Source: an uncultured Hyphomicrobiales bacterium (GTDB lineage Bacteria; Pseudomonadota; Alphaproteobacteria; Rhizobiales; Beijerinckiaceae). From it: a stretch of 64,000 bases of DNA. The notes beneath the pieces are model-generated. The model saw nothing but the letters and a program-made list of their open reading frames with translations. It did no database searches and was not told the origin of the DNA. The DNA is taken from NCBI GenBank assembly GCA_903825465.1, contig CAIKAR010000059.1, positions 11,971 through 75,970 of the forward strand, read 5' to 3'. This document shows, in pieces, positions 9,743 to 62,766 of this stretch; position 1 is the stretch's first letter, and each line of letters starts with the position of its first letter. Both the position numbers and the translations under genes were made by a program.

Positions 9743-9783
9743 GACGGCGGGAAAGGCCCCGCGCGGGCCTGGACCCGCAAGCG

Positions 9784-10188: not shown

Positions 10189-10290
10189 CGTGGACTCCAA
10201 CAAACCACAACGCCCGAAGGCGTTTTCACGGTCGGCCCCGTTGCCCGCCCCTGAAATCCATACGCGCCCGCGAAAAAGGCGAGAATATGT

Positions 10291-16502: not shown

Positions 16503-16738
16503 GTTCCCGGTTTAGACCCGCGGCGCGGCCGCGGACAAGCCGGCGGCGACAGGAAACGACGACGTTGGCGAAATCAGGCGCGCGGAATTTCGCGTCGGCT
16601 TTCAGTTTCTCCCCGAAGGAACGCCGCGTCGGCGTCCCGGCTCGCGCGATTGTCAACGCGCGGCAAAAACTCTATCCGTTCATCGGACTATCAAAATGGT
16701 TCCGCGCGCCGGCGCGAAACGTCAACGGAGGACGTCGA

Positions 16739-18760
16739 TTGCTGTTCGTCGCGGTGGATATCGGAGGCACATTCACCGATCTTGTCGGGTTCGACGACGC
16801 CAGCGGCGCGCTGTATTCCGCCAAGCGCCTGACCACTCCCGACAATCTTGTGCGCGGCGTGCTCAATTGCGTCGATCGCGGCGGGGTGCCCATCGCCGAC
16901 ATCACGCGGCTCATTCACGGCTCCACCGTGGCGATCAACACGCTGATCGAGCGCAAGGGCGCGCCGACGGCGCTGTTGGTCACGAAAGGCACGCGCGATG
17001 TCTACGCAATCGGGCGCGGCAACCGTCCCGACGCCTACAACCTGTTCTTCAAGCGGCCGAAGCCCATCGTGCCGCGCCGCGACATCCACGAGATCGACGA
17101 GCGCATGCTGGCGGGCGGAATCGTCCGGACGGGACTGAACCTGTCGGAGGTCGCGGCGGCGGCGGCGGAAATCCGCAAATCGGGCCAGACCGCCGTCGCC
17201 GTCTGTTTCCTGCATTCCTACGCCAACACCTCGCACGAACACGACGCGGCGGAAACGCTGCGCGCCGAGCTTCCCGGCGCCTATGTGTCGGCGTCGCACG
17301 AAATCATGCGCGAATACCGCGAGTACGAGCGCATCTCGACGACGGTGGTGAACGCCTACATTGGGCCGACGGTGAGCGGCTATGTCGGCCGCCTCGAAGA
17401 GGGCCTGCGCGGGCACGGCTTCCGCGGCGAACTTTCGATCATGCAATCCAACGGCGGCGTCATGTCGCCCGAGGTCGCGGTGAAGCGGCCGGTGATGATG
17501 ATGGAATCAGGCCCCGTCGGCGGCGTCATCGCCAGCGCCGAAGTCGCCCGGACGCTTGGCCATGGCAACGTGATTTCCTTCGACATGGGTGGCACGACCG
17601 CCAAGACGAGCCTCGTGCGCGACAGCGCGGTCGCCATGGCGGAGGGTTATTACGTCGGAGGCTATTCGAGCGGCGATCCGGTGATGGCGCCCGTCGTCGA
17701 CATCGTCGAAGTCGGCGCCGGCGGCGGCAGCGTCGCCTGGATCGACGAGGCCGGCGCGCTGAAAGTGGGGCCGCTCAGCGCGGGCTCGGCGCCTGGCCCG
17801 ATCTGCTATGGACTGGGCGGAACGCAGCCGACGATCACCGACGCCAACGTCGTGCTCGGACGGCTTGGCGCGGAAGAGTTTCTCGGCGGCGAAATGCGCC
17901 TCGACGCGAAGGCGGCGGAAGAGGGCGTCGCCAACGCCATCGGCAAGCCGCTAGGTCTCGACACGCGGGCCGCGGCGCGCGCCATCGTCGAAATCGCGGT
18001 GGCGAAAATGTCGCTGGCCGTGCGGCAGGTCTCCGTCGAAAAGGGCTACGATCCCCGCGATTTCGCGCTTGTGGCGTCCGGCGGCGCCGGGCCTTTGCAC
18101 GCGGCGATGATCGCCAGGGATCTGCGCATCCCGAAGGTGATCATCCCGTGGTTCCCGTCGCATTTCTCCGCCATGGGCATGTTGATGGCGGACGAGCGCC
18201 ACGACGCCGTGCGCACCTATCCCGCCGCGCTTGAGCGGCTCGACTTCGCCGACCTCGAACGCGTTGTGAACGAGCTTGAGCGCGGCCTGCGCGGCATGTG
18301 CCGCGGCGGCGATCCCGAGATCCAGATCCAACTGGACCTGCGATATGTGGGGCAGGAGTTCAGCCTGTCCGTGCCGACGCCGCGCGGCCTGATTTTGAAA
18401 GGCGACCGGGCGGCGATCCGCGCCGCCTTCGACGCGCTGCACCAGCGGCGCTACGCCCACAGCGCCGACGACGAGCCCGTTGAAATCATCAACGTGCGCC
18501 TCGTCGCCTCGTCGCGCCGCGCCAAGCCGGCGATGCCGAAGCCCGGCACGGACAACCCGCGGCCGCGCGCGCGGCTGGCGACGATGGGGCCCGGCCCCGC
18601 GGTGAGTTGCGAGGTGATCGACCGCGCGGCGTTGAGCGCGGGGCAAATCGTCGAGGGCCCCGCGCTGATCCAGGAATACGGCTCCACGACCGTGGTGTTT
18701 CCGCGCGATGTCTGCGAAGTCGCCGCCACCGGCGAAATCATCATTTCAATCGGAGCGTGA
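16739..18760 (+). CDS. Hydantoinase/oxoprolinase family, A (ATP-binding) subunit, copy 1
   Basis: TTG start after GGAGG; DIGGTFTD, HGSTVAIN, SFDMGGTTAK, GAGGGS, SAGSAPGPICYG. Confidence 0.92.
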   Translation: MLFVAVDIGGTFTDLVGFDDASGALYSAKRLTTPDNLVRGVLNCVDRGGVPIADITRLIHGSTVAINTLIERKGAPTALLVTKGTRDVYAIGRGNRPDAYNLFFKRPKPIVPRRDIHEIDERMLAGGIVRTGLNLSEVAAAAAEIRKSGQTAVAVCFLHSYANTSHEHDAAETLRAELPGAYVSASHEIMREYREYERISTTVVNAYIGPTVSGYVGRLEEGLRGHGFRGELSIMQSNGGVMSPEVAVKRPVMMMESGPVGGVIASAEVARTLGHGNVISFDMGGTTAKTSLVRDSAVAMAEGYYVGGYSSGDPVMAPVVDIVEVGAGGGSVAWIDEAGALKVGPLSAGSAPGPICYGLGGTQPTITDANVVLGRLGAEEFLGGEMRLDAKAAEEGVANAIGKPLGLDTRAAARAIVEIAVAKMSLAVRQVSVEKGYDPRDFALVASGGAGPLHAAMIARDLRIPKVIIPWFPSHFSAMGMLMADERHDAVRTYPAALERLDFADLERVVNELERGLRGMCRGGDPEIQIQLDLRYVGQEFSLSVPTPRGLILKGDRAAIRAAFDALHQRRYAHSADDEPVEIINVRLVASSRRAKPAMPKPGTDNPRPRARLATMGPGPAVSCEVIDRAALSAGQIVEGPALIQEYGSTTVVFPRDVCEVAATGEIIISIGA

Positions 18761-18767
18761 GGCCGCG

Positions 18768-20495
18768 ATGCTCGATCCCGTCACCCTCGAAGTCATCCGC
18801 AACACGCTGCCCGCCATCGCCAACGAAATGGCGGCGGACTTGCAGCGCACCTCCTACAACATGATGATCTACGAGGTCTGCGACTTCTGCACGACGCTCA
18901 CCGACGCGCGCGGCCGGTTGATTTCGCAGAACGTCGGCGGCGTCTCGCACTTCGTCGCCGACCTCGGCGTCATCATCGAGGACATCGTCGCGCGGGAGGG
19001 ACCGGACGGCTTCCACCCCGAGGACGTGTTCATCACCAACCACCAGCGCGTGGCGGGGCAGCACCTCAACAACGTCGTCATCTACACGCCCTTTGTGCAC
19101 AAGGGGAGGCTGCTCGGCTTCGCCATGACGCGCGCGCACTGGATCGACGTCGGCGGCTCGTCGACCGGGCTTGGCGCCGGCGCCTTCGTGCTCGACCCGT
19201 GGTTCGAGGGCCTGCAAATCGACCAGCTGCGCATCTACGAGGCGGGAAAACTCAACAAGACGCTGCACGCGATGATCCGCGACAACATCCGCTATCCCGA
19301 GGCCTCGCTCGGCGACATGCGCGCGCAGATCGCCTCGTGCCGCATGGCGACACGCCGGCTGGAGGAACTCGTCGAGCGCTATTCGCCCGAGGTTGTCGAG
19401 GAAGCCATCGAAACCATCTTCGGCGAAACCGAAAGGCGTTGCCGCAACATCGTCGCCAAAATTCCGGACGGCGTTTACGAGGCGAGCGCGATCTACGACG
19501 ACGACAGCGTCAAGCACGACGAGCCAATTCAACTGCACGCGAAGGTGACGGTGGCCGGCGGCGACATGATCATCGACCTCTCGGGTTGCTCGCAACAGCG
19601 CGTCGGCGGCGTCAATTCGCGCACGCTCGCGGGCGCGCGCGTCGCCTACAAGGCGCTGACGGAGCCCGAAGCGCCGGTGAACGAGGGCTCGTTCCGCGCG
19701 CTCCAGGCGATCATCCCCGAAGGCAACGTCATGATGGCCAAATACCCGGCGCCCATGGGCGGCTGGAGCATGATCGTGCCGACGGTCGTCGACACCATCT
19801 TCAAGGCGCTGGCGCCCGCGATACCAGACCGCATTCCGGCGGCGCATCACGGCCTGCTCGGCGGCTCCATTGTTTTCATCGGCAAGGATCCGAAGACCGG
19901 CGGCAATTTCGTGTTGCAAAGCCTCGAAGGCGGGGGCTGGGGCGGCCGCCCGATGGAAGACGGCGAATCCGCTTCGGTTTCCGTGTGTCAAGGCAACGTC
20001 AAGAACTCGCCCATCGAAAGCATGGAAATCAAGACGCCGGTCGTTGTCGAAGAACGCTCGCTGCGCGTCGACTCCGGCGCGCCCGGCCGCTTTCGCGGCG
20101 GTCTCGGCGTCGATGTGCGCGTGCGCAACCTTGTCGACGGCAAATGGAATCTCGCGCGTCCGCGCCGACGCAAATGCCCGCCCTGGGGCTTGTGGAACGG
20201 CGGCGAGGGCGGCGGCGCCGAATTCCTGATGCGGCTCGCCGGCGAGAACGATTTCGAATCGATGGACCAGGTCATGCGGCCGGTGCCCGTCGACTCCGAA
20301 GTCATCATCCGCACCGGCGGCGGCGGCGGCTGGGGCGACCCGTTCGAGCGCGAACCGGAGGCGGTGCTGGGCGACGTGCGCGAGGGCCTGGTGAGCGTCG
20401 AGAAGGCGCGCGCCGACTACGGCGTCGCCGTCGACGCGCAGGCCACGCGCGTGGACGAGGCCGCGACGCGGGCGCTGCGCGCGGCGAGGGCGTGA
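18768..20495 (+). CDS. Hydantoinase B/oxoprolinase family subunit, copy 1
   Basis: DPVTLEVI, MIYEVCDF, HWIDVGG, DSGAPGRFRGG, TGGGGGWGDP. Confidence 0.92.
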   Translation: MLDPVTLEVIRNTLPAIANEMAADLQRTSYNMMIYEVCDFCTTLTDARGRLISQNVGGVSHFVADLGVIIEDIVAREGPDGFHPEDVFITNHQRVAGQHLNNVVIYTPFVHKGRLLGFAMTRAHWIDVGGSSTGLGAGAFVLDPWFEGLQIDQLRIYEAGKLNKTLHAMIRDNIRYPEASLGDMRAQIASCRMATRRLEELVERYSPEVVEEAIETIFGETERRCRNIVAKIPDGVYEASAIYDDDSVKHDEPIQLHAKVTVAGGDMIIDLSGCSQQRVGGVNSRTLAGARVAYKALTEPEAPVNEGSFRALQAIIPEGNVMMAKYPAPMGGWSMIVPTVVDTIFKALAPAIPDRIPAAHHGLLGGSIVFIGKDPKTGGNFVLQSLEGGGWGGRPMEDGESASVSVCQGNVKNSPIESMEIKTPVVVEERSLRVDSGAPGRFRGGLGVDVRVRNLVDGKWNLARPRRRKCPPWGLWNGGEGGGAEFLMRLAGENDFESMDQVMRPVPVDSEVIIRTGGGGGWGDPFEREPEAVLGDVREGLVSVEKARADYGVAVDAQATRVDEAATRALRAARA

Positions 20496-20521: not shown

Positions 20522-21643
20522 ATGCCGGTGGAAAACGCGCGGATGCTGGCGGCGAGAGCCTGGCTCGCCGAGAACAAGCTCGACGGCTTCGTCGCCTTCA
20601 ACGACGGGCAGAATTCGTTTCTGGAATCGAACGCCGTGTTCGTCTTCGCGGATGTTCGCGCGCTGGGGCGAAGCGCCGTGATTGTGGCGCGCGACGGCGC
20701 TTCCACGTTGGTCGCCGAACCCGCCTTCGACGACGCGCGGCTAAGGGAGCTCGCGACCACGCGGGAAGCGATGGGCACGGACGACTTCGTCGGCGCGTTG
20801 CGCGCGACGCTCGTTCGGCTTGGCCTCGACAAGGCGAATTGCGCGACCGTCGGGTTGTCGAAGCAAAGCCGCAAGCTGGCGCGGGCCGTCGGCGACATGT
20901 TTTCGAAGCCGCCGCGCGCGGAGGACAACCTGTCGTCGCATCTCGCGCGCGTGCGCCTGCCGCAGGAACTCGCCGCGTCGCGCAAAGCGACGTGGATCGC
21001 CGAGCGCGGCTACGAGCGACTGTTGCGATCCGCGAAGCCCGGCGTGCGCGAATACGAGCTCGCCGCCGACATCTACACCTACATGAAGGGCATCGGCGCC
21101 GAGGACAATTTCCTCCTGATGAGCGCCTCCCAGCACAATCTCGCGGTGCGCGCCGCCGGCGGCCGCGTGCTGGAAGAGGGCGACATTATTTTGGGCGAGA
21201 TCACGCCCTGTTATCAAGGCCAGTTCGCGCAGATTTGCCGCACCGCCGTCATCGGCGAGGCGTCGCCGACGCTGCGCGACAAATACGCGCTCCTGCAAGC
21301 CGCGATGCGCGCCGGCATGGACGCGGCGCGCCCCGGCGTCCCCGTGGCGCAGGCGACCCTCGCCATGAACGACGTGCTGACGAAGGCCGGCTACGGCGAT
21401 TATTGCAAGCCGCCCCACATGCGCGTGCGCGGACACGGGCTCGGCATCACGTCGAGCCAGCCGGGCGACCTGCACGACGAAAGCCAGACGGTGTTCGAAG
21501 AAGGCATGGTGTTCGTCATGCATCCCAACCAGTACATTCCCGAAACCGGCTACCTCATGTGCGGCGAGCCCGTGGTGATCTCGCACAACGGCGCGATCTC
21601 GCTGTCGGACCGGGACGCCGAACTCGACTTCGTCGCGGCATAG
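20522..21643 (+). CDS. M24 (Xaa-Pro peptidase/creatinase) family protein with non-canonical ligands, copy 1
   Basis: Creatinase-like N-domain; KPGVREYEL, GDIILGEITPC, AQICRT, GHGLG, MHPNQY. Confidence 0.85.
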   Translation: MPVENARMLAARAWLAENKLDGFVAFNDGQNSFLESNAVFVFADVRALGRSAVIVARDGASTLVAEPAFDDARLRELATTREAMGTDDFVGALRATLVRLGLDKANCATVGLSKQSRKLARAVGDMFSKPPRAEDNLSSHLARVRLPQELAASRKATWIAERGYERLLRSAKPGVREYELAADIYTYMKGIGAEDNFLLMSASQHNLAVRAAGGRVLEEGDIILGEITPCYQGQFAQICRTAVIGEASPTLRDKYALLQAAMRAGMDAARPGVPVAQATLAMNDVLTKAGYGDYCKPPHMRVRGHGLGITSSQPGDLHDESQTVFEEGMVFVMHPNQYIPETGYLMCGEPVVISHNGAISLSDRDAELDFVAA

Positions 21644-21652
21644 GAGCGCGCT

Positions 21653-22732
21653 GTGATCACCACGCATCCTTCGATCATGCTCGGCTCCTACGTCCTGGAC
21701 GAGGACCGGCTGCCGCGCGACGAGTTCGACATCCGCCTGGCTCCGCTGCGCGAGGCGATGACGCGCGAAGGCCACGCCGCGACGCTGATCTACGGCGACG
21801 CGAAGGAGCACGAAGCGCTGGCGTTCTTCACCAATTTCATCCCGCGCATGCGCTGGGCGATGGCGATGATCCCCGCCAAAGGCGAGCCCCGGCTGCTGAT
21901 TTCCATCAGTTCGCGCGACATGCCCGCGATGAAGGCCATGACATGGATCGCCGATGTCAAGTCGGGTTGGGAATGGAAGTGGTTCGAAGACCATGTCGCG
22001 AAACTGCCCGCGCCGGGAATCTTGGCGACCATCAACCTCGACATGATGACGCCGCTGCTGTTCGGGCAATTGTCGAAGTCGATCGACGGCGTGTTCACGC
22101 TCGCCGAGGCCGACCACGTCGCGTCGAAAGCGCGCGAAAAACACCGGCCGCGCGAAATCGCGATGATCAGGGCCGCGGCGAAAATCGGCGACGCGGCGGG
22201 GAACGCCATCGCCGAGCGTTGGCGCGCCGGCGACGATGTCGAGAACGCCGCGCTCGCCGGCGAGCGCTTGGCGCGCGCGATGGCGGCGCAGGATGTTCGC
22301 ACACTCGTCAGCCGCGACGGCGGCTTGACGCTCGAGCCCTACCGCGCCCGTTTCGACGACAGGCCGAAGGCCTTGCTCGCCTATGTCGCGGTGAAATACA
22401 TGGGTTATTGGGCCGAGGCGTTCGTTTCGCTCGGCGGCCCCGCGCAAAAGGCCAACACCGCGCTGGACGACATGTTGAAGCGCTTCAAGCCGGGCGCGCC
22501 CATCGCGGCGTCCGCGCATCCCGCGCTTGACGGCTCCGCCGGGCATCGGATCGGCTTGTCGCTCGTGGAGGGCCCCGAACTCCGCGCCGGCGCGGAAGCG
22601 CCGGCGGCGGGCGTGGTTTACGCGTTGCGCGCCGGCGAAACGGACACGGGCGCGGGCGCGGTCGCCTCGGCCATGGTTCTGCCGCGCGGCGACGGGTCTT
22701 TCGAAATTTTGTCGCGGAGCGTTTGCGCGTGA
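21653..22732 (+). CDS. Degenerate M24-fold protein (creatinase N-domain, eroded C-domain), copy 1
   Basis: DEDRLPRDEF..RLAPLREAM..LIYGD; REIAMIRAA; YMGYWAE; no canonical metal ligands. Confidence 0.7.
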   Translation: MITTHPSIMLGSYVLDEDRLPRDEFDIRLAPLREAMTREGHAATLIYGDAKEHEALAFFTNFIPRMRWAMAMIPAKGEPRLLISISSRDMPAMKAMTWIADVKSGWEWKWFEDHVAKLPAPGILATINLDMMTPLLFGQLSKSIDGVFTLAEADHVASKAREKHRPREIAMIRAAAKIGDAAGNAIAERWRAGDDVENAALAGERLARAMAAQDVRTLVSRDGGLTLEPYRARFDDRPKALLAYVAVKYMGYWAEAFVSLGGPAQKANTALDDMLKRFKPGAPIAASAHPALDGSAGHRIGLSLVEGPELRAGAEAPAAGVVYALRAGETDTGAGAVASAMVLPRGDGSFEILSRSVCA

Positions 22733-22774: not shown

Positions 22775-23857
22775 ATGTTGCGAACATCCACGCGCCGGCG
22801 GTTCGCGATCGCCGCGTTCGCCCTCGGGTTGGCGCCGCGCCTCGCGGCCGCCGCCGACTTGAACGCCGACCTCAAGGCGCTCGTCGCCGCGGCCGACAAG
22901 GAGGGCAACGTCAATTTGAGCTGGAGCCAGTCGACGCTTGGCGGGAGCCAGGGCGCGGAGCTGCTGCGCGACGGCGTCAACAAGGTGTTCGGCTCCCATA
23001 TCAAGGTGACGTTCACGCCGGGGCAGGAGATGGCCCGCATCGCCAACCAGCTCGTGATCGAAAAAGGCGCGAAACAACCGGCGAGCGTCGATATTTACCT
23101 CGGCGCGGCGGCGCAGCTCGCGCCCCTCGCCGCGACCGATTTGTTCGAGCCGGTGGAGTGGGCGAAATATCTGCCCGGCCGCGTCGACGCGAAAAACGTC
23201 GAGACCGGCGGCAAATTCCTGCGCGTCACGACCGGTCTTTCTGGCGTCACCTACAACACGGCGCTGGCGCCATCGACCCCGACGTCGCTGCGGGATTTTT
23301 TGAAGCCGGAGTGGAAGGGCAAGATCGCCACCACGGCCTACGCCGCCAGTTTCGACGTGCTGCTCGCCAACGACATGTGGGGCCGGGACAAGATCATCGA
23401 CTACATGCGCGAATTGAACGCGCAGGTCGCGGGCCTCATCCGCTGCGGCGACGGCGAGCGCATCGCGACGGGCGAATTCGCCGCGCTTGTCATGGACTGC
23501 ACGGGCCAGGACTCGCTCGTGTGGCGCGAGCGTGGCGCGCCGATGGATCAGGCGATCCCAGCCGACGCCGCGCAATTGCGCTATTACTACGTCGCCGTGC
23601 CGACGAACGCGCGAAACCCCGCCGCCGCGAAGCTGGTGTCGCTCTTCCTGGAGACGCCGGAGGGCCAGAAAATCGCCTACGACACATGGAAGGCCGATCT
23701 GCACACTTATGCCGGCGCGCATATCTCGAAACAGATCGCCGACAACGAGGCGAAGGGAACGGTGTTCAAGGAAATCACGATCGACTGGTGGCGCGCGCAT
23801 CCCGAGATCGACGCGAACAAGGGCGAGTTCGTCAAAATCCTGTCGTCGCGGAATTAA
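22775..23857 (+). CDS. ABC transporter substrate-binding protein (FbpA/AfuA-thiamine-like)
   Basis: RRR signal; LVAAADKEG; DFLKPEWKGKI; NARNPAAAKL. Confidence 0.82.
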   Translation: MLRTSTRRRFAIAAFALGLAPRLAAAADLNADLKALVAAADKEGNVNLSWSQSTLGGSQGAELLRDGVNKVFGSHIKVTFTPGQEMARIANQLVIEKGAKQPASVDIYLGAAAQLAPLAATDLFEPVEWAKYLPGRVDAKNVETGGKFLRVTTGLSGVTYNTALAPSTPTSLRDFLKPEWKGKIATTAYAASFDVLLANDMWGRDKIIDYMRELNAQVAGLIRCGDGERIATGEFAALVMDCTGQDSLVWRERGAPMDQAIPADAAQLRYYYVAVPTNARNPAAAKLVSLFLETPEGQKIAYDTWKADLHTYAGAHISKQIADNEAKGTVFKEITIDWWRAHPEIDANKGEFVKILSSRN

Positions 23858-23864
23858 GCGCGGC

Positions 23865-25604
23865 ATGGCGGCGGACCCGGACATCGCCGGCCGGCGGGAG
23901 GGCGACGGGCCGCTGCGCGCCGCGATACTGGCCTGCGTTCTGATCGTTTGCTTCGTCATTCTCGCGCACCTGGCCGCGTTGTTCTGGCTCAGCCTGGCGG
24001 ACGGCTCGCCCGGCGCGACGGCGCTGACCTACGGCTGGCGAAACTACGCCGAGGTGTTTTCGGATTCCCGAACCGTCGACGTCCTGTGGAACACCGCCGG
24101 GTTCGCGACGCTCAGCCTGCTCGTCGCTTTGGGTTTCGGCCTTCCCGCGGCGTGGCTCGCCGAGCGCACGGACCTGCCCGGCAAAACCTTCCTTTTCACG
24201 ATGATGACCATCGGCATGCTCATCCCCGGCTTTTCGGCGGCGATGGGCTGGCTGTTTCTGCTGCATCCCCGTATCGGGATCGTCAACACATGGCTCGTCG
24301 GCGGGTTTGGCCTGCGGCAGCCGCCGTTCAACATCGCCAGCGTCGGCGGCATGGCCTGGGTTCAGGGTTTGAACATGGCGCCGCTCGCCTTCATCATGAC
24401 GGCGGCGGTTTTCCGCGCGCTTGATCCGGCGTTGGAGGAGGCCGCGCAAATGAGCGGCGCGGGGCCCGCGACGACGATCCGCCGCGTTGCGTTGCCGCTG
24501 GCGTGGCCCGGCGTGCTGGCGGCGGCGATCTATGTTTTCACGATCGGCTTCGCGGCCTTCGACATTCCGGCCATCATCGGCTGGAGCAACCGCATTTTCA
24601 CCTTCTCGACCTACGTCTATTTGCTGCTCAGCCCGCAGGACGTGTTGCCGCGCTACGGCGTCGCCGCCGCGTTGAGCGTGGTCGTCGTCGCGATCGCGGC
24701 CGCGCTGAGCTGGTGGTACGGCGCGATGCAGGAGAGGTCGCGCCGCTTCGCGGTGATCACGGGAAGGGCCTATCGGCCCGCGCTGTCGAGGCTCGGCGGC
24801 AAGGTCTGGCCCGCCTGGCTGTTTCTCGGGTTCTATTTCCTGATGGCGAAAATCCTGCCGATTCTGCTGCTGGTCTGGAGCTCGCTGCTGCCGTTTTTCC
24901 AGCCGCCGTCGCTGCGGGCGCTGAGCTTCGTTTCGACGAAGCACTACGCGTCGCTGCCGTGGGATCTCGCGTTGACGGGCGCGCGCAACACCGCGGTGTT
25001 GATGATTCTCACGCCGACGCTGGCGCTGGCAGTGGCGACCGGGTTTTCGTGGACGTTGTTGCGGACCGGCAATCCCTTCCGCAAATTCTTCGATTTCGTC
25101 GCGTTTTTGCCGCACGCTATTCCCAGCGTCGTTTTCGGCGTGGCGGCGCTGTTGATCGCGCTTTACGTGTTGCAAAACATGGCGCCGATCTACGGCACGA
25201 TCTGGCTGCTGCTGCTGGTGTTCTTCATCGCGCGGCTTTCATACGCGACGCGCATGACCAACAGCGCGCTGATTCAAATCCACCCCGAGCTCGAGGAATC
25301 CGCGCGGATGAGCGGCGCCGGCCTCGGCCAGGTGCTGTCGCGCGTGCTGGCGCCGCTGCTGTCGCCGACGCTGATTTACGCGTGGCTTTGGATCGCGCTT
25401 CTGGTTTTCCGCGAGTTGACGCTGGCGGTGATTTTGTCGTCCGGCGGCAATGTCACTCTGCCCGTCGTCATCTGGAGCCTGTGGCTCGGCGGCGGTCTTG
25501 GGCAGGCGTCGGCGCTGGCCGTGGCGATGCTCGCGGTCATGGCGCCGATCATGGCGTTGTACTGGATCGTGGCGCGCCGTCGCGGATTCATGGCGTCGAC
25601 ATAG
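23865..25604 (+). CDS. Fused two-domain ABC permease (FbpB-like)
   Basis: Two EAA loops (LEEAAQMSGA, LEESARMSGA); many transmembrane segments. Confidence 0.9.
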   Translation: MAADPDIAGRREGDGPLRAAILACVLIVCFVILAHLAALFWLSLADGSPGATALTYGWRNYAEVFSDSRTVDVLWNTAGFATLSLLVALGFGLPAAWLAERTDLPGKTFLFTMMTIGMLIPGFSAAMGWLFLLHPRIGIVNTWLVGGFGLRQPPFNIASVGGMAWVQGLNMAPLAFIMTAAVFRALDPALEEAAQMSGAGPATTIRRVALPLAWPGVLAAAIYVFTIGFAAFDIPAIIGWSNRIFTFSTYVYLLLSPQDVLPRYGVAAALSVVVVAIAAALSWWYGAMQERSRRFAVITGRAYRPALSRLGGKVWPAWLFLGFYFLMAKILPILLLVWSSLLPFFQPPSLRALSFVSTKHYASLPWDLALTGARNTAVLMILTPTLALAVATGFSWTLLRTGNPFRKFFDFVAFLPHAIPSVVFGVAALLIALYVLQNMAPIYGTIWLLLLVFFIARLSYATRMTNSALIQIHPELEESARMSGAGLGQVLSRVLAPLLSPTLIYAWLWIALLVFRELTLAVILSSGGNVTLPVVIWSLWLGGGLGQASALAVAMLAVMAPIMALYWIVARRRGFMAST

Positions 25605-25694
25605 TTCCACCGCTTGCAAATCGCCGTCCGAAAACGCAATCTCCCGGCATCAATCAACGGCGCGCCGCCCGGCGCCCGGCCAGGGAGGACGCAA

Positions 25695-28782: not shown

Positions 28783-28866
28783 GACAAGCTCCCGCCGCGC
28801 GGCCCTTGCCTTGCCGCGCAAGGCGCTTACTTAGAGCGTGCTGAAGGTTCAGGCAAAGGCGCGAAA

Positions 28867-53270: not shown

Positions 53271-54314
53271 TCAAATCGGCCGCGTCGCCACCCAGTTCAC
53301 GCCGTCGATGGTGGCATGCGCCGTCAAAACGGCGCAAGCGCCGGCCGGCGCGTCGCCGAGATCGCCGCCGGCGACGGCCTCAAGCGGATAGGAGCCGCGG
53401 CATTCCTCAAGCAGCCAGCGATCCAGCCGCGCGCCCGGCACGCGCGCGATCGCGGCCGCGGCTTGCGGGCCGATATCGGCGGCCGGATCGTTGCGCGCGA
53501 TGAGCGCGTCGAGCGCCGCCTCCAGCGTGGCGAAGCGCGCGGCGATGGCGGCGTTCGTCGAGAGCGAGCGCGTCCGCCGGACCCATGTCGACTTGTAGGC
53601 GATGGACGCGCGGATGGCGAAGGACGCGCCCGTTTCGCCGGCGCGGTCGACGCGCGCGAAGCCGACGCCGCGCCCGAGGTCCGGCGCGATGGTGATGTTG
53701 ACGTCCTCCGCCCGCGCGTCGCGCGCCGATTTTTCGATGGCGCCGGCGAGCGTGTTGGCGCCGCGTTCCGGCGACGAGTCGATCAGCGCCAGCGCGTCGC
53801 GCGCGATCACCGCTGCGTGCGCGAACAATCCGCGCTCGGCGTCGTCGCGCTTCGCGCGTTCGGCGGCGAACAGCGCGGTCGCGTCGACCAGCGCGAGGCC
53901 GGGCGCCGTTTCCAGCAATTCCGCGGCCTGAACGCTCGGCAGCATGTCGAGGTCCAGCACGCCGAGCCTCCGCGCGCCGCTGGCTTTCAGGCGCTTGGCG
54001 AAATATTCGGCGGGCTTCGGCGTCGTCGTCAATTCGCCGACGGGCGTCACCGCGCGCATCCATTCGGCGACGCGCTTCGACAGCGCCGTCGCGAAATCCA
54101 GCTCCCCCGCGGGCGGCGCGAAGAGCAGGCCTTCGGACCAGTAGGGCGTGAAGCCGATGAGCCACGACACCGCCGCGGGCCGCGCGATGTTGGTGTAGAT
54201 CACGAGGCCGTCGAGGTTTTCGCGCGCCATCGCCGATTGCAGGCGCGCGCGCCGCGCGGCGAGCGCGGCTTTCGGCAGTTCGGCTTCGTCCCAGCCATAA
54301 TATCCGCGGCGCAT
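53271..54314 (-). CDS. Degenerate M24-fold protein, copy 2
   Basis: MRRGYYGWDEAELP..RARLQSAM..LVIY; GFTPYWSE; YKSTWVRRTR; no metal ligands. Confidence 0.7.
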   Translation of the reverse strand: MRRGYYGWDEAELPKAALAARRARLQSAMARENLDGLVIYTNIARPAAVSWLIGFTPYWSEGLLFAPPAGELDFATALSKRVAEWMRAVTPVGELTTTPKPAEYFAKRLKASGARRLGVLDLDMLPSVQAAELLETAPGLALVDATALFAAERAKRDDAERGLFAHAAVIARDALALIDSSPERGANTLAGAIEKSARDARAEDVNITIAPDLGRGVGFARVDRAGETGASFAIRASIAYKSTWVRRTRSLSTNAAIAARFATLEAALDALIARNDPAADIGPQAAAAIARVPGARLDRWLLEECRGSYPLEAVAGGDLGDAPAGACAVLTAHATIDGVNWVATRPI

Positions 54315-54323
54315 GGCGAGCCC

Positions 54324-55430
54324 TCAGTAAGCGACTTGAAACAATTCGCGGGACAGCGAGCCAAGCGACTCGTGGCCATTCTCGCGCACGACGATGGTGT
54401 CGCCAAGCACCATGTAGCCGGCGTCGGGATGGTAGGTGTTGGGGTGCACGATGATCGTCGAGTCGCCGACGACCGGCAGCGCGACATCCTCGAGGATTTG
54501 CGGGCGCTGGTCGGGGAACAACCCGATGCCGTGGCCGCGCACGCGCGTGTATTCCGACGTGACGTAGTCGCCGAGGCCATATTTGCGAAACACGTCGTTC
54601 TCGGCCTTGGCGATGTCGCTCGCCTTCACGCCCGACTTCACCACCGCGAGGCCGGCGTCGAGCGCCTCCTGGTAAACCGCGAAGGACTTGAGCTGGACGT
54701 CGCTCGCCTTGCCCGCGACAAGCGTGCGGCACACCTGCGCGTAATATCCATCGACGCAGGGCGTGAGCTCGGTTGTCACGAGGTCGCCCGCTTTGACGAT
54801 CTTGCCGACCGGCGGCGCCATGCCGCGCACCTCGACGCCGCCGACGCCGATGATCATGAAGTTTTCCGGCACCTTATGGACCCGGAAAAACGCCTCGATG
54901 GCGGCGATCAACTCGTAGTCCTTGGCGCCGGGAACAGCCGCGTCGCGGAAAACCTTGTAGCCCTCGTCGGCGAGCTTGGCGGCGCGGCGCGCGGCGTCGA
55001 GTTCGAAGTCGCGCTTGGCCATCAACAAATGTTCGATCAAGGCGGCGCCGTCGGATATGCGCAAATCCTTCGCCTCGCGCGTGAGGCCGTAGGGCATCAG
55101 CCGCCACGGCGCGGCGGCGACGCGGCGGTTGCCGGCGCGGCCGAGCATGCTTTTGGCGGCCTCGATCAACTTTGGAGCGAAGACCACGTCGCACGCGGTT
55201 TCAAGCTTCGCGCGCTCGGCTTCGCCGGCGTCGTCGAGCAACAGCGTCGTCGTTCCGTCGCGCCCAACGAGCGCCAACGCCTGCCCCTCTTGAATCCCGA
55301 AATCCGTCGCGTAGCGCAGCGAATCCGCGTGCCAGTTGTTGCCGTAGACAAGCAGCGCGTCGATGTCGGCGCGGGCCATCTCCTCGCGCAGGATCGCGCT
55401 TCGAGCGTTGTGCAGGGCCGAGGCGTTCAT
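54324..55430 (-). CDS. M24 family protein with non-canonical ligands, copy 2
   Basis: KRDFELDAARRAA, GDLVTTELTPC, AQVCRT, RVRGHGIG, VHPNTY. Confidence 0.85.
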   Translation of the reverse strand: MNASALHNARSAILREEMARADIDALLVYGNNWHADSLRYATDFGIQEGQALALVGRDGTTTLLLDDAGEAERAKLETACDVVFAPKLIEAAKSMLGRAGNRRVAAAPWRLMPYGLTREAKDLRISDGAALIEHLLMAKRDFELDAARRAAKLADEGYKVFRDAAVPGAKDYELIAAIEAFFRVHKVPENFMIIGVGGVEVRGMAPPVGKIVKAGDLVTTELTPCVDGYYAQVCRTLVAGKASDVQLKSFAVYQEALDAGLAVVKSGVKASDIAKAENDVFRKYGLGDYVTSEYTRVRGHGIGLFPDQRPQILEDVALPVVGDSTIIVHPNTYHPDAGYMVLGDTIVVRENGHESLGSLSRELFQVAY

Positions 55431-55438
55431 TTCAACTC

Positions 55439-57112
55439 CTATTCGGCGGCGGACACGCGGACGAATCCCTCGCGCAGGTCGTTCTCGACGGCGGCTTTCG
55501 AGCGCGCCCCGGGGTCGCCGTAGCCGCCGCCGCCCGCCGTGAAGAAAGCCACGGAATCGCCGGCTTGCAAGGGGATTTGCGTGCCCTTCAGCACGCGCGT
55601 TTCCGGCGCGCCGCTCGCGTGGCGGATGATCGCGTAATTGGCGCCGCCCGAGCCGCCGCCATGCAGGCCCCATGGCGGCAGTTTCGTGCGCTCGAAATTG
55701 ATGTTCACTTGGCAGGGCACGAGGCATTTGTAGGTGAGTTCGACGCCGAGCCCGCCGCGGAATTTGCCCACCCCGCCGCTGCCGTCCCGCAGGCGATGGT
55801 TTTCCACCAGGAATGGATAGCGTATTTCCTGCAATTCCACCGGCGAATTGCGCACGTCGCCCTGGCACACCGAGACGCTGGCGTCCTCGCCGTCTTCGTG
55901 CGGGCGGCCTCCCCATCCCCCGCCGAAGATGTTCATCAGCAGGAAGCGCTGGTTGTCCCCGGTGACGCCGTAGAACGAGCAGCCGCCCATGTCGCCCTTG
56001 TGCGCGGCGGGAATCGCCTCCGGCAGCGCCGGCGCCAGCGCCTTCAAAATCGTGTCGATGGTGGTGGGCAGCGCGATGCTCCACAGGCCGAGCGCGGCGG
56101 GCGGACGCGCGCTGACAAGCGTGCCCTCGGGGAGGATCACCTCAAGCGAGCGGAAGCAGCCCTCGTTCACGTCGAGGTCGGGCGAGGTCAGCGCCTTGAA
56201 GGCGACGCGCGCCGCCGCCACGCCGCCCGAGCGGCCCGAATTGACGGGGCTGTTCGTCTGGGGGTTCATCTCGGAGAAGTCGATCGACATGGTCGAGCCC
56301 TTGACGCGCACGGTGACCTTTATGCGCAGCGTCTTTTCCAGGTCGCGGCCGTCGTTGTCGAGGAAGCTCTCGGCCGTGTAGACGCCATCCGGAATCTTCT
56401 CGACGACCTTGCGCACCGCGAGGTCCGCCTGGTCCCACACGCGGGCGACGCATGCTTCCACGGTCGCGCGGCCGTAGCGCTGGAGCAGTTCCACATAGCG
56501 CCGCGCGCCCAGCTGGCACGAGGCGATTTGCGCGCGCATGTCGCCGAGCGCCGCGTCGGGAAACCGCGTGTTGTCGGTGATGATCTGCCACAGCGTGTCG
56601 TTGCGCTTGCCGGCCTCGTAGATTTTCAGCGAGCGCATCTGAACGCCCTCCGCGAAAATCTCCGTGGTCGCCGACGAGCCGAAGCCGATGCGCGCGCCGC
56701 CGATGTCGACCCAGTGCGCGCGGTTGGCGGTGAAGGCGACGATCTCGCCCTCGAAGAAGACGGGGCAGTAGAGCACGACGTTGTTGAGATGCTGTCCGCA
56801 GGTCTCGCCGTGGTTCATGATCAACACGTCGCCCGGCGCGAAGCCGTCGAGGCCCCAGCGGCGCACGCCGTCCTCGATGGCGATGCCGAGGTCGGCGAGG
56901 AAGATCGGCAAGCCGCCGCGGTTCTGCGAAATCATGCGGCCTTGGAGGTCGATGAGGCCGCAGCAATAGTCGCGCACCTCGTAGATCATCATGTTGTAGG
57001 CCGCCTTGCAGAGCGCGTTGCCCATCTCGTCGGCGTAGGCGACGATGGCGTTGCGCACGACCTCGACGGTGATTGGATGAGCCTCGGCGGCGCTTGATGT
57101 CTCGGGGGTCAT
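55439..57112 (-). CDS. Hydantoinase B/oxoprolinase family subunit, copy 2
   Basis: HPITVEVV, YNMMIYEVRDY, HWVDIGG, DGSGGVGKFRGG, TAGGGGYGDP. Confidence 0.92.
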   Translation of the reverse strand: MTPETSSAAEAHPITVEVVRNAIVAYADEMGNALCKAAYNMMIYEVRDYCCGLIDLQGRMISQNRGGLPIFLADLGIAIEDGVRRWGLDGFAPGDVLIMNHGETCGQHLNNVVLYCPVFFEGEIVAFTANRAHWVDIGGARIGFGSSATTEIFAEGVQMRSLKIYEAGKRNDTLWQIITDNTRFPDAALGDMRAQIASCQLGARRYVELLQRYGRATVEACVARVWDQADLAVRKVVEKIPDGVYTAESFLDNDGRDLEKTLRIKVTVRVKGSTMSIDFSEMNPQTNSPVNSGRSGGVAAARVAFKALTSPDLDVNEGCFRSLEVILPEGTLVSARPPAALGLWSIALPTTIDTILKALAPALPEAIPAAHKGDMGGCSFYGVTGDNQRFLLMNIFGGGWGGRPHEDGEDASVSVCQGDVRNSPVELQEIRYPFLVENHRLRDGSGGVGKFRGGLGVELTYKCLVPCQVNINFERTKLPPWGLHGGGSGGANYAIIRHASGAPETRVLKGTQIPLQAGDSVAFFTAGGGGYGDPGARSKAAVENDLREGFVRVSAAE

Positions 57113-57124
57113 GGCGGCTCTCCC

Positions 57125-59176
57125 TTAAAACGCGACGTCGATGACGAGGTGGCCGGCGTCCGTCACGCGCGCCTTGTCGCCGGGGTGGATCAGTATCGTC
57201 GAATTCGGCTCCTCGACGACGGCGGGGCCGTCGAAAACGAAGCCCGCGGGCAAGGACGGGCGCCACAGAATGCGCGCGTCGACGGGCTTTTCCGGATCGC
57301 CAAACACCACCTTGCGCGATGTCTCGGGCGCGTCGCTCGTCGGCGTCCACGGGCGGGACATGGATTCCTCCGCCACGGTGTCGGCGCGCGGCGCCGTCAG
57401 CACGAGGCGGATATTGACGATTTCGAGCGCCTCTTCCGCGGCCGCTTGGCCATAGCGCTGGTCGTGCTCGACATGGAAGAGCTCGCGGATTTTCGACACG
57501 TCGCCGGTCAGCATGTCGGGCCCGTCGACGGGAATGTGCAGCGCGTGTTCCTGGCCGACGTAGCGGAGGTCGGCGTTGAATTGCGTTTTCGCGATCCCGC
57601 GCGCGACGCCGTCGAGCTTCAACTGCTCGTCGCCGGCGGCGGCGAGCTCCTTGAATATGGTCGCGACCCCGGAGGGATCGAGCTGGCCGAGCCGCCCCAC
57701 GATCGTGCGCACGAAATCCTGCCGCCACGAGGCCATCAACATGCCGAGCGCCGAAAACGCGCCGGGCAGCTTGGGAATGATGACGCGCGGAATGAATATC
57801 TCGCGCGCGACGGCGACCGCGTGCATCGGGCCCGCGCCGCCGAAGGCGATCATCGTCGTTTCCCGCGGGTCCACGCCCTTGTTCACCGAGACCGCGCGCA
57901 CCGACAGCGACATGTTGGCGTCGGCGATGGTGGCGACGCCGATGGCCGCTTCCTCCACCGACAGCTTCAGCGGATCGGCGACTTTCGCCTTGATCGCCCC
58001 GCGCGCCGCCTCCACGTCGAGCGGCATGCCGCCGTTGAGGAACCGCTTGGGATTGATGCGGCCGAGCACGAGGTCGGCGTCGGTGATGACGGGCGTGTCC
58101 GAGCCCCTGCCGTAGCACGCGGGGCCGGGATCGGCGCCGGCGCTTTGCGGCCCGACATGCAATCCGCCGGTGTCGTCCACCCAGGCGATGGAACCGCCGC
58201 CGGTGCCGACTTCGACGATATCGACGACGGGCAGCTGCATGGGCTGGCCGCTCGCCAGCGGGCCAATCACATAGCCTTCTTCGACCGCGGGCGCGCCGTG
58301 AAGGATGAGGCTCGATTTCGCCGTCGTGCCGCCCATGTCGAAGCCGATGGCCTGTTCGATGCCAAGCTGCTTGCACAGGATGCCCGCCGCGATCATGCCG
58401 GCGACGGGGCCGGATTCCATCATGGACACCGGCTGCGAGCGCGCCATCGACGCGGACATGACGCCGCCGTTCGAGCGCATGAGGCGCATCTTGCCGGAAA
58501 ACCTCTCGCCGCGAAGCCACGTTTCGAGGTTGCCAAGATAGTCGCGCACGCGCGGCCCGACATAGGCGTTGAGCACGGTCGTCGACGTGCGCTCGTACTC
58601 GCGGAACTCGCGCAGGATTTCGTGCGACAGCGTGACGAAGAGGCCGGGGCTCGCCTCGCGAAGGGCCTCGCCGATGGCGCGTTCGTGCGCGGGGTTGGCG
58701 TAGGAATGCAGAAGACACACGGCGACGGAGGCCGCGTTCGCGTCGAGGACCGCCTTCACGACGGCGTCGATCCCGCCGCGCGACAACTCCTTCAGCGCGC
58801 GGCCCGCGGGATCGAGCCGCTCGTCGACCTCGAACGTCAGGTGGCGCGCCACGAGCGGCTTCGGCCTGTGAAAGAACAGGTTGAACGCTTCGATGCGGTT
58901 GCCCCGGCCAATGGCGTAGACATCGCGAAAACCCTTGGTCGTGATCAGCGCCGTCTTCGCGCCCTTGCGCTCGAGGACGGTGTTGATCGCGATGGTCGAG
59001 CCATGCAGCAACTCGCCAAGGCCCGGCAGGTCGCATTTCGCGAGCCGCAGGCTTTCGGCGACGCCTTCGCTCGGATCGGCCGGCGTCGTGGACGTCTTCG
59101 ACGAGACGATTTCGCCGTCGAGAACGCCGACGAGGTCGGTGAACGTGCCGCCAATATCAACGCCAACCATGTTCAT
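57125..59176 (-). CDS. Hydantoinase/oxoprolinase A subunit, copy 2
   Basis: DIGGTFTD, HGSTIAIN, GFDMGGTTAK, GTGGGS, SAGADPGPACYG; ATGA overlap with the upstream permease. Confidence 0.92.
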   Translation of the reverse strand: MNMVGVDIGGTFTDLVGVLDGEIVSSKTSTTPADPSEGVAESLRLAKCDLPGLGELLHGSTIAINTVLERKGAKTALITTKGFRDVYAIGRGNRIEAFNLFFHRPKPLVARHLTFEVDERLDPAGRALKELSRGGIDAVVKAVLDANAASVAVCLLHSYANPAHERAIGEALREASPGLFVTLSHEILREFREYERTSTTVLNAYVGPRVRDYLGNLETWLRGERFSGKMRLMRSNGGVMSASMARSQPVSMMESGPVAGMIAAGILCKQLGIEQAIGFDMGGTTAKSSLILHGAPAVEEGYVIGPLASGQPMQLPVVDIVEVGTGGGSIAWVDDTGGLHVGPQSAGADPGPACYGRGSDTPVITDADLVLGRINPKRFLNGGMPLDVEAARGAIKAKVADPLKLSVEEAAIGVATIADANMSLSVRAVSVNKGVDPRETTMIAFGGAGPMHAVAVAREIFIPRVIIPKLPGAFSALGMLMASWRQDFVRTIVGRLGQLDPSGVATIFKELAAAGDEQLKLDGVARGIAKTQFNADLRYVGQEHALHIPVDGPDMLTGDVSKIRELFHVEHDQRYGQAAAEEALEIVNIRLVLTAPRADTVAEESMSRPWTPTSDAPETSRKVVFGDPEKPVDARILWRPSLPAGFVFDGPAVVEEPNSTILIHPGDKARVTDAGHLVIDVAF

Positions 59177-60006
59177 TTCGATTTGGCTCCGGAAAGACCA
59201 AGTTTGGCCGGCGCGCGCGCGCCCGGCGTCAGGCGACGCTCGGCGACCCGCACCAGCGAGTTGAACAAAACCGCGATCAGCGCGAGCGTGCCGATCAGCG
59301 CGAACAGCGGCGCGGGATTGAAGTTTTCCGCGTAAAGCCGCGTGAAATAGCCGATGCCGCCGGTCGACACGTAAAGCTCGGCGAGAATCACGCCAAGCAT
59401 GGTCAACGTCATCGACAGGCGCAGGCCGGTGAAAAAAGCGGGCGCCATGTTGGGAGCGATCACGTGGCGCAGCAGGTCGGCGCGCGCGCCGCCCATCGAG
59501 GCGATGGCGCTGCGATGGAGCGGGTTGATGTCGCGCATCCCCGCGACCACGTTGACGATGATGGGAAAGATTCCATGCGTGAACCCAAACGCGATCTTGC
59601 CCGCCGCGCCCAGCCCGAAGATCAGGATGAACAGCGGCATCAGCGTGACTTGCGGAATGGCGTAAAGCAGCAACACGATGGGCAGGAAGCTGGCGCGGGC
59701 GAAGTTGGACACGCCGATTGAAATTCCGATCGCCGCGCCGAAAACGATGGACAACGCGTAGGCGACGGCGATTTCGAACACCGCCATGGAAAGCGCCCAA
59801 AAAATGCGCTCGTCGCTCATAACCGGGTTGAACCACGCGCCGACGATCGCCGAGACCGGCCGAATGAAGGCGGGGTCGGCGAAAAACCTGCCGTAGATTT
59901 CGAGCGCCGCCGCCGCCGCGAGGATGATCGCCCAGCGCGTCAACGACACCGCGCGCGCCCGCGGCATGCCCATGATGATTTCGCGCGGCGCGTCGATCAT
60001 GCTCAT
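59173..60006 (-). CDS. ABC permease, TauC/SsuC-like
   Basis: LYAIPQVTLMP, FPIIVNVVAG, FFTGLRL, LAELYVSTGGIG. Confidence 0.88.
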   Translation of the reverse strand: MSMIDAPREIIMGMPRARAVSLTRWAIILAAAAALEIYGRFFADPAFIRPVSAIVGAWFNPVMSDERIFWALSMAVFEIAVAYALSIVFGAAIGISIGVSNFARASFLPIVLLLYAIPQVTLMPLFILIFGLGAAGKIAFGFTHGIFPIIVNVVAGMRDINPLHRSAIASMGGARADLLRHVIAPNMAPAFFTGLRLSMTLTMLGVILAELYVSTGGIGYFTRLYAENFNPAPLFALIGTLALIAVLFNSLVRVAERRLTPGARAPAKLGLSGAKSK

Positions 60007-60767
60007 CGCCGCGCGGCCTCGCTGGCCGTCGCCCGGTTCTCGATGGAGGTCATGACGAAATTGAGCGAGACCGCGAAGCAAATGACGACGACGATCCAGG
60101 CGTACATGCGCGCCGAATCCATCAGTTCCGCGGCGAGCGCGATATTGCGCCCGACGCCGGCGATCGACGACAGCGCCTCGCCGCCGAGCACCGACGCGAA
60201 ACAGATGAAGAATCCGACGCGCAGCCCCGTCACAAGCACCGGAAACGCGGAAGGCAACAACACGTGCCGAAATGTTTCCAGCGACGACGCGCCCATCGAG
60301 CGCGCGGCGCGCAGGTAGCGCTCGTCCGCGCGGCCAAGCCCGGCGATGGTGTTGAGCGCGATGGGAAAGAAGCCGTAGACCGCCCCGTAAGCGACCTTGG
60401 AGCCGGCGCCGATGCCGAAGAAAAGGATGAACATCGGGAAGAACAGCGTGATGGGAATGGTGAAAAGGCCGGCGATGATCGGCTCGAACACCTCGGTCCA
60501 GAATTTCGAGCGCGTCACCAGCCAGCCGGCGAAGACGCCGGCGACGACCGCGATGCCATAAGCCTTGGCGATGGTGGCCAGCGTCACCCCGACGGCCGAC
60601 CAGAACGGCGCCGCGACGACAAGCCGCGACACGGCGGTGTAAACCGCTTCGGGCGGCGGCAAAAACAGCGGGCTGACGGCGTGGCTCGATGTGAGCAGCC
60701 ACCACGCGCCGCCGACGACGCCCAAGAACGCGATTTGAATCGAGCGTTGGGCGAAGGCGCCGGTCAC
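60003..60767 (-). CDS. ABC permease, TauC/SsuC-like
   Basis: FFPIALNTIAG, EAA-like LRAARSMGAS, VTGLRVG, GGEAL. Confidence 0.88.
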   Translation of the reverse strand: MTGAFAQRSIQIAFLGVVGGAWWLLTSSHAVSPLFLPPPEAVYTAVSRLVVAAPFWSAVGVTLATIAKAYGIAVVAGVFAGWLVTRSKFWTEVFEPIIAGLFTIPITLFFPMFILFFGIGAGSKVAYGAVYGFFPIALNTIAGLGRADERYLRAARSMGASSLETFRHVLLPSAFPVLVTGLRVGFFICFASVLGGEALSSIAGVGRNIALAAELMDSARMYAWIVVVICFAVSLNFVMTSIENRATASEAARR

Positions 60768-62607: not shown

Positions 62608-62766
62608 CGCTGAATCCCCCAGCGCCGGAGTGGCGCTCCCGGTCGCGCGCCCTTTTACGGATTTGGCGCTGTCGCGCAAGGGGTGGTTGCCTTGGCGGCG
62701 GAAAGCGCCTTACCATCGCCCAAACGCCGGCGCCCTCGAGGCGGCCGATTTGGGAGGGACGCGCCG

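Follow-up and report, generated by a model that had tools for sequence, protein, structure and literature searches.

In a 64,000-nucleotide stretch of DNA from an uncultured Hyphomicrobiales bacterium (contig CAIKAR010000059.1 of assembly GCA_903825465.1; hereafter the window), we found two genes for an M24-family protein, M24-A, in which four of the five residues of the canonical dinuclear metal site have been replaced, and the resulting set is conserved across a whole subfamily. Each of the two genes is directly followed by a gene for a degenerate paralogue, M24-B, and both pairs lie next to the two subunits of an ATP-dependent hydantoinase/lactamase, HyuA and HyuB (together HyuAB). On the evidence of sequence, predicted fold and gene context, M24-A with its pseudo-subunit is very probably a non-peptidase offshoot of the M24 family with a rebuilt active site, and is neither a new fold nor a new kind of system. 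We give an even chance to the reading that M24-A and M24-B form an obligate alpha-beta hydrolase of C-N bonds, which would work in the same pathway as a dedicated HyuAB.

The metal-ligand positions of M24-A

Copy 1 of M24-A (20522..21643, + strand) is an open reading frame of 373 amino acids, whose ATG has a GAGGGA ribosome-binding site 9 nucleotides on its 5' side. Its product, to which the recorded protein P0008 (373 amino acids) is identical, is a two-domain pita-bread protein carrying E226, Q237, H305, H334 and G348, the last of these followed by E349. Membership of the superfamily is clear from the match to the Pfam family Peptidase_M24 (PF00557), which reaches 109.5 bits against a cut-off of 23. 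Copy 2 (54324..55430, - strand, 368 amino acids) was found by tblastn of copy 1 against the window; the two copies are 31% identical, and copy 2 has the same E/Q/H/H/G set, followed by D. All the motifs quoted in an earlier note on this DNA are present in both copies, as GDIILGEITPC, AQICRT, RVRGHG, HPNQY and CGEP in copy 1 and as GDLVTTELTPC, AQVCRT, RVRGHG, HPNTY and LGDT in copy 2.

The ligand positions were mapped by HMMER alignments to three solved prolidases, those of P. furiosus (1pv9), M. ulcerans (4ege) and D. radiodurans (5cdl). The three alignments are concordant and ungapped in the motif regions. The first ligand, D209 of 1pv9, corresponds to E226 of M24-A, the second (D220) to Q237, the third (H284) to H305, the fourth (E313) to H334 and the fifth (E327) to G348; D328, one residue past the fifth ligand, pairs with E349 in copy 1 and with D in copy 2. 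The earlier note had described the set as E/Q/H/H/E-D, and its first four residues are borne out by all three prolidases, but not its last, since a Gly stands at that position and the acid lies one residue downstream. Besides this Gly, that note overlooked the Arg that accompanies the set (Arg303, two residues ahead of His305 on the same strand) and the degenerate partner subunit. Four of the five canonical D/D/H/E/E ligands are swapped in M24-A, which lacks the set required in M24B peptidases. Because both metal-bridging carboxylates are gone (Asp220 to Gln and Glu327 to Gly, in 1pv9 numbering), a canonical dinuclear centre in M24-A appears very unlikely. The auxiliary His/His/Arg set of M24B Xaa-Pro peptidases, which we take to be H243 ('PH'), H361 ('HE/HD') and R404 (GxRxED) of E. 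coli PepP, is absent as well: in the prolidase alignments the position of the 'PH' His falls in a 2-residue gap of M24-A, the His of the 'HE/HD' motif after GHGxG corresponds to column 312, which is variable among the relatives of M24-A, and the Arg of GxRxED is Met346.

Conservation across a large subfamily

From 68 loci, taken from species-representative genomes, we obtained and aligned 63 full-length homologues. E226, Q237, H305, H334 and G348 are invariant in all 63 of these homologues from other genomes, and so are R303, N336, R240, C239, D221, N196, F197 and Y344. The subfamily is a large one, with more than 1400 homologues in a large sequence collection, and its members come mostly from soil Alphaproteobacteria and Betaproteobacteria. 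An exhaustive HMMER search over 1.84 billion cluster representatives returned 130 matches at E <= 1e-30, which corresponds to about 130 clusters at 50% identity. In a wider comparison, the two window copies were set beside 83 full-length representatives of clusters at 50% identity, and of these 85 sequences 77 had the exact E-Q-H-H-G set, down to about 29% identity to copy 1, with R303 in 99% and Y344 in 97% of these 77; E/D349 and Cys239 are each about 88% conserved in the same comparison. A representative at a greater distance, P0268, keeps the canonical D/D/H/E/E and so lies at the border of the subfamily. Since the E/Q/H/H/G set is invariant across the subfamily, it is under strong purifying selection, and such selection on polar residues argues for a maintained working site and against decay.

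Cys239, in the AQxCRT motif, was considered as a ligand or nucleophile of a peptide-deformylase-like Cys/His/His site and set aside, being only 88% conserved and replaced by Ile, Pro or Thr in some members. Glu/Asp349 was likewise rejected as the fifth ligand, as it aligns one residue late and about 12% of members have Q, A, N, G, H or C there instead.

A second M24 variant of about 474 amino acids was found at L069:7464-8981, L073 and L074, and also at L070-L072, as a stand-alone gene in Rhizobium, Neorhizobium, Pararhizobium, Mangrovicoccus and Poseidonocella. Aligned to the D. radiodurans prolidase, it reads Y/Q/H/H/G-D and has a Q/H/H/G-acid core in common with M24-A, and neither M24-B nor HyuAB was found within 8 kb of it. 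The candidate identities of DddP and creatinase for loci L069-L074 were rejected by sequence, and these proteins are another M24 variant family.

Predicted fold and annotation

The AlphaFold2 (AF2) model of M24-A, built on a 47-sequence alignment, has a predicted local distance difference test score (pLDDT) of 95.1 and a predicted template modelling score (pTM) of 0.91. When this model was compared with the PDB using Foldseek, two-domain prolidases and Xaa-Pro peptidases were matched at template modelling (TM) scores of 0.83-0.85, creatinase at 0.82 and DoeA at 0.77, within an overall range of 0.75-0.85. The best PDB sequence match has an E-value of 1e-25 and canonical ligands in its structure, and among the PDB sequence matches there was no solved structure with the E/Q/H/H/G set and no DddP chain; creatinase chains were absent from the phmmer PDB matches at E <= 0.001, so that M24-A does not group with creatinase by sequence. 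Among the NCBIfam equivalogs no model came near its cut-off for M24-A: PepQ_Arch scored 88.8 bits against a cut-off of 630, the YpdF-type model PRK09795 scored 81.1 against 393, PepP (PRK10879) 35.3 against 465, and the two DoeA models 40.6 against 613 (TIGR02993) and 46.1 against 575 (NF038259). In the databases the homologues carry names such as 'Xaa-Pro dipeptidase/aminopeptidase' or 'M24 family metallopeptidase', and a full-text literature search found no paper on the M24-A subfamily or on the HyuAB-M24 operon. The proposal in the earlier note that these proteins form a distinct subfamily is therefore strongly supported by a residue set kept over some 130 clusters (50% identity, E <= 1e-30) and by the number of homologues, which exceeds 1400, with no NCBIfam equivalog or solved structure to go with it.

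A degenerate partner encoded downstream

The gene downstream of M24-A copy 1, M24-B copy 1 (21653..22732, + strand, 359 amino acids), starts with a GTG 9 nucleotides past the TAG of M24-A, and its ribosome-binding site, TAGGAG, overlaps that stop codon. M24-B copy 2 (53271..54314, - strand, 347 amino acids) starts with an ATG 9 nucleotides past the TGA of M24-A copy 2, and here too a ribosome-binding site overlaps the stop. Pfam gives only a weak Creatinase_N match on M24-B, and profile-profile comparison with hhalign identifies it as a full-length homologue of M24-A, with 98.3% probability; at the ligand positions it has Y/E/H/R/S. M24-B lies 3' of M24-A in essentially all loci with enough downstream sequence, usually about 10-30 nucleotides apart. 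In Paenibacillus validus, an exception, the two genes are 4 kb apart, and the apparent exceptions otherwise are frameshifted long-read assemblies or truncated loci. In the long-read metagenome-assembled genomes L016, L023, L044 and L065 the M24-B matches are split over 2-4 frames at about 9100-10260, and these split frames are probably homopolymer frameshift errors of assembly, not pseudogenes.

The domains of the two proteins are unequally conserved. Measured as mean pairwise identity over one common set of loci, the C-domain of M24-A reaches 69% and its N-domain 47%, and for M24-B the N-domain reaches 52% and the C-domain 48%, an asymmetry that fits a single site formed by the C-domain of A and the N-domain of B. 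The conserved residues of M24-B comprise Y47, G48, D49, H53, F62, P64, R65, R67, W68, R80, R88 and D89 in the N-domain and K248, W253, H289, E306 and Y323 in the C-domain. In the window, M24-A and M24-B share one frame with a single TAG between them, and for this reason we folded a read-through A-B fusion. The fusion model (16 sequences, from the window and 15 in-frame loci, with an artificial 3-residue link) has a pTM of 0.84 and a pLDDT of 82.8, and only the linker residues 375-390 are disordered in it, which suggests a defined packing of A against B. M24-B is probably a part of the active enzyme.

Association with ATP-dependent hydantoinases in the source genome

Both pairs in the window end a HyuA-HyuB-M24A-M24B run, and each run is linked to a different ATP-binding cassette (ABC) importer. 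In the first cassette, HyuA1, the alpha subunit of an ATP-dependent hydantoinase/lactamase (16565..18760, + strand, exact start uncertain), and HyuB1, a hydantoinase B/oxoprolinase subunit (18708..20495, + strand), precede M24-A copy 1. The nearest solved structures to HyuB1 are an N-methylhydantoinase (7hk5, matched with 252 bits) and a caprolactamase (6yra), and HyuA scores 488 bits with the caprolactamase alpha model, under its cut-off. Because their nearest relatives are N-methylhydantoinase and caprolactamase, HyuA and HyuB are assigned by sequence to the hydrolytic ATP-dependent lactam/hydantoin branch of their family (PMC8453981), and not to the carboxylases. Downstream of pair 1 lie a periplasmic solute-binding protein of the SBP_bac_8 type belonging to an ABC importer (22775..23857, + strand) and an ABC permease with two BPD_transp_1 stretches (23487..25604, + strand), the true start of which is later than that of its open reading frame.

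In the second cassette the order is the same on the opposite strand: HyuA2 (57125..59335, - strand, start uncertain) and HyuB2 (55439..57112, - strand), which is 48% identical to HyuB1, precede M24-A copy 2. Upstream is a three-gene ABC importer (60003..62679, - strand), consisting of an NMT1/SsuA-type binding protein (61627-62679, - strand), an ATPase (60764-61630, - strand) and a permease (60003-60767, - strand).

The source genome (a 3.9-Mb assembly, 98.6% complete) has four M24-A/B pairs (C59 twice, C34 and C93), all four M24-A copies carry the E/Q/H/H/G signature, and all four pairs adjoin HyuAB of one subtype, with seven further HyuAB pairs standing without M24. The resulting 11 HyuA/HyuB pairs in a genome of this size are an unusual expansion of ATP-dependent hydantoinase/lactamase systems.

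Directly after the ABC permease of cassette 1 there is a gene for a flavoprotein of the FAD_binding_2 family (25614-27458, + strand; 614 amino acids, flavocytochrome c / 3-ketosteroid dehydrogenase-like), and a protein 82% identical to it is present in the nearest relative locus, L001; this flavoprotein may belong to the same pathway. The following dihydroorotase-type gene (27460-28821), which scores above the PRK09060 cut-off, is convergent and was not counted in the module.

Occurrence and gene context in other genomes

The phyletic distribution is tight. Among 200 other genomes of the same order, none had an M24-A of this type (E <= 1e-45) and none a HyuB of the HyuB1 type (E <= 1e-150). 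We checked six genomes in which the M24-A/B pair lacks an adjacent HyuAB, and all six encode a HyuB that is 58-68% identical to HyuB1; in three of them that HyuB is near a further M24-A copy, directly adjacent in two and about 5 kb off in one. The HyuAB-M24 operon also occurs on metagenome contigs and in a cultured organism, Neorhizobium galegae HAMBI 540, whose chromid carries an orthologue of cassette 2. There it belongs to a run of ten genes whose start and stop codons overlap, and the order is LysR, HyuA, HyuB, M24-A, M24-B, PrpD-like, NMT1-ABC and Amidohydro_2, and the identities to cassette 2 are 67% for HyuA, 72% for HyuB, 59% for M24-A and 40% for M24-B.

The genes that recur as operon partners across loci encode a regulator of the LysR type, PrpD-like and Amidohydro_2 proteins, and binding proteins of the TctC or NMT1 type, and in Xanthobacteraceae loci a Rieske-reductase fusion, a nitroreductase-like protein and an amidase. 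The MmgE/PrpD-like gene comes directly after M24-B at L076:11123-12409, L078:11359-12684 and L002:10263-11585, and overlaps by its start/stop codons in N. galegae; neither cassette of the window has it. Across loci, the neighbouring genes yielded no consistent substrate; a substrate read from the class II aldolase and MsrB neighbours in Xanthobacteraceae was rejected, these genes being on the other strand or distant and probably reflecting inherited synteny, not an operon. As a whole, the neighbouring genes indicate catabolism of a small nitrogen compound, probably a carboxylated one, and do not point to peptide turnover. The suggestion in the earlier note that the protein is probably not a peptidase thus receives indirect support, from the loss of four ligands, from the loss of the His and Arg residues of substrate binding and proton shuttling, and from the catabolic operon context, with HyuA/HyuB, binding-protein, PrpD-like and Amidohydro_2 genes alongside.

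A proposed mechanism and its alternatives

We hypothesise that M24-A would form an obligate heterodimer with M24-B, encoded immediately downstream, and that A would be the catalytic chain. Their arrangement would follow the 'embracing' homodimers known from creatinase and prolidase, in which each pita-bread site is capped by the N-domain of the partner chain, and a single catalytic site would be left, that of the A C-domain capped by the B N-domain. The dinuclear carboxylate-bridged centre has been dismantled, and the site would instead consist of the invariant residues Glu226, Gln237, Arg303, His305, His334 and Tyr344, with Glu/Asp349 in most members. It might hold a single metal on His305 and His334 together with Glu226 or Gln237, or it might be metal-free and rely on creatinase-like acid-base chemistry, in which case Arg303 might supply the charge that formerly came from the metals. 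A mononuclear or otherwise altered metal chemistry, as the earlier note had suggested, is plausible, and a metal-free creatinase-style site matches the sequence equally well. The bond hydrolysed would be a C-N bond of the amide, carbamoyl or amidino type, not an Xaa-Pro bond, and the substrate a small nitrogen compound that probably carries a carboxyl group. Most simply, the enzyme would act on the ring-opened product of HyuAB, such as an N-carbamoyl or N-acyl amino acid, and the adjacent ABC or TctC systems would import the ring precursor, a cyclic ureide or lactam. By analogy, creatinase-like cleavage of an N-carbamoyl or amidino group is the most attractive specific guess. The boldest form of this proposal is a new catalytic type, namely an obligate alpha-beta enzyme with a His2-Glu(-Gln) mononuclear or Arg-assisted metal-free site, which would carry out the second hydrolysis after ring opening by HyuAB and represent a new class of N-carbamoyl/amidino (ureide-type) hydrolase. 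We consider this conceivable but doubtful; if true, a cyclic nitrogen compound would be broken down in soil by a pathway not yet described.

Several observations weigh against the C-N hydrolase proposal. HyuAB is directly upstream of M24-A in only about 11 of the 68 loci, and therefore the M24-A/B pair is not physically dependent on it, and the other neighbours vary, with TctC, amidase, Rieske reductase, nitroreductase and class II aldolase genes among them. Glu/Asp349 and Cys239, at only about 88% conservation, are not essential ligands. Moreover, the pTM of the fusion model, resting on 16 sequences and the artificial 3-residue link, bears only indirectly on the heterodimer, and the conserved residues of M24-B may serve in ligand binding or contribute to the site, which goes beyond the role of a structural cap.

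M24-A could still be a dipeptidase, of the Xaa-Pro or another kind, whose metal site is unusual, and could cleave for example the linear dipeptide from a diketopiperazine opened by HyuAB. A lactamase followed by a dipeptidase would be a logical two-step route, and the nearest relatives of M24-A in sequence and fold are small prolidases. At the same time, four of the five ligands are replaced, both bridging carboxylates included, the 'PH' His is gapped, the column of the 'HE' His is variable and the GxRxED Arg is Met, the scores with the PepQ, YpdF and PepP models are 35-89 bits where 393-630 are required, and pairing with a degenerate subunit is not known from prolidases, so that we regard a peptidase of this kind as very improbable. 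Another possibility is that the pair is non-hydrolytic, a lyase, isomerase or similar enzyme acting on a small molecule, as is the dimethylsulfoniopropionate (DMSP) lyase DddP, in which the pita-bread fold hosts such chemistry (PMC4108388). A site of His, His, Glu, Arg and Tyr would suit general acid-base chemistry, and the PrpD-like dehydratase/isomerase and Amidohydro_2 decarboxylase/hydratase partners would suit a pathway acting on a carbon skeleton. However, most characterised M24 enzymes are hydrolases, with DddP the exception, DddP retains acidic metal ligands that M24-A does not, and no DddP chain appeared among the PDB sequence matches; a non-hydrolytic pair seems to us rather unlikely.

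It could also be that M24-A/B is not catalytic at all and serves HyuAB as an accessory, that is as a substrate-binding, regulatory or assembly subunit. The association of all four pairs with one HyuAB subtype in the source genome, and the genome-level co-occurrence elsewhere, would agree with such a role, and in the related acetophenone carboxylase there are extra subunits too. Yet in most loci the pair has no adjacent HyuAB, and the invariant polar residues at the old catalytic positions, together with the C-domain of A being by far the best conserved, point to catalysis or specific ligand binding. The non-catalytic M24 proteins PA2G4/Ebp1 and Spt16 are not known to keep such a conserved polar site, and we hold an accessory role to be quite improbable.

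Significance

M24 enzymes are the textbook case of a dinuclear metallohydrolase fold, and a study of M24-A/B would show how such a dinuclear site was rebuilt into another catalytic device, and would add one example of a heterodimer of active and inactive paralogues. Characterising the pair would also correct a widespread misannotation as 'Xaa-Pro peptidase', and would be likely to show what substrate is used by an orphan group of ATP-dependent hydantoinases/lactamases, which is of interest for biocatalysis because it hydrolyses stable lactams. The presence of the operon in the cultured host Neorhizobium galegae HAMBI 540 makes the proposal directly testable.

Comparison with known M24 enzymes

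To our knowledge, the only well-studied departures from the dinuclear chemistry of the M24 family are creatinase, DoeA, DddP and the non-enzymes Ebp1 and Spt16. The closest likeness by sequence is to the small prolidases (1PV9, P. horikoshii 1WY2 and T. maritima 2ZSG), which share with M24-A the combination of Creatinase_N and pita-bread domains (best E 1e-25, 20-25% identity, TM 0.83-0.85), and M24-A retains the His among their metal ligands as well as their GD, GHG and RT motifs. It differs from them in its E/Q/H/H/G set, in having lost the His and Arg of the substrate and proton relay, in the new Arg303 and Tyr344, in being paired with a degenerate paralogue and in lying in catabolic operons; we know of no prolidase that is paired with a degenerate subunit.

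DoeA/EutD (6TWK) resembles M24-A in fold (TM 0.77) and weakly in sequence (E 6e-7), and it too is a non-peptidase M24 enzyme of a catabolic operon, which opens or cleaves a small cyclic nitrogen compound. DoeA works with the deacetylase DoeB/EutE, and unlike M24-A it has no pseudo-partner of its own fold. DddP is a two-domain M24 protein that forms an 'embracing' homodimer and performs non-peptidase chemistry (PMC4108388). It is unlike M24-A in that it keeps acidic ligands and a di-iron site, and no sequence match between the two was found.

Creatinase is a member of the M24 family that has given up the dinuclear metal site, and its substrate, which it hydrolyses, is a small C-N compound with a carboxyl group. 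Each active site of its dimer is completed by the N-domain of the partner chain. Its structures (1CHM, 7YTO) have the same fold as M24-A, with a TM score of 0.82. The replacement residues of M24-A probably differ from those of creatinase, the two have no sequence match at E <= 0.001, and the catalytic residue of creatinase, presumably His232, lies in a segment that is two residues shorter in M24-A. Creatinase, the prolidases and DddP all form 'embracing' homodimers (PMC4108388). In such a homodimer creatinase has two sites, whereas M24-A/B would, judging from the sequences, be a heterodimer with one degenerate chain. Creatinase is the best model for the probable mode of action of M24-A/B.

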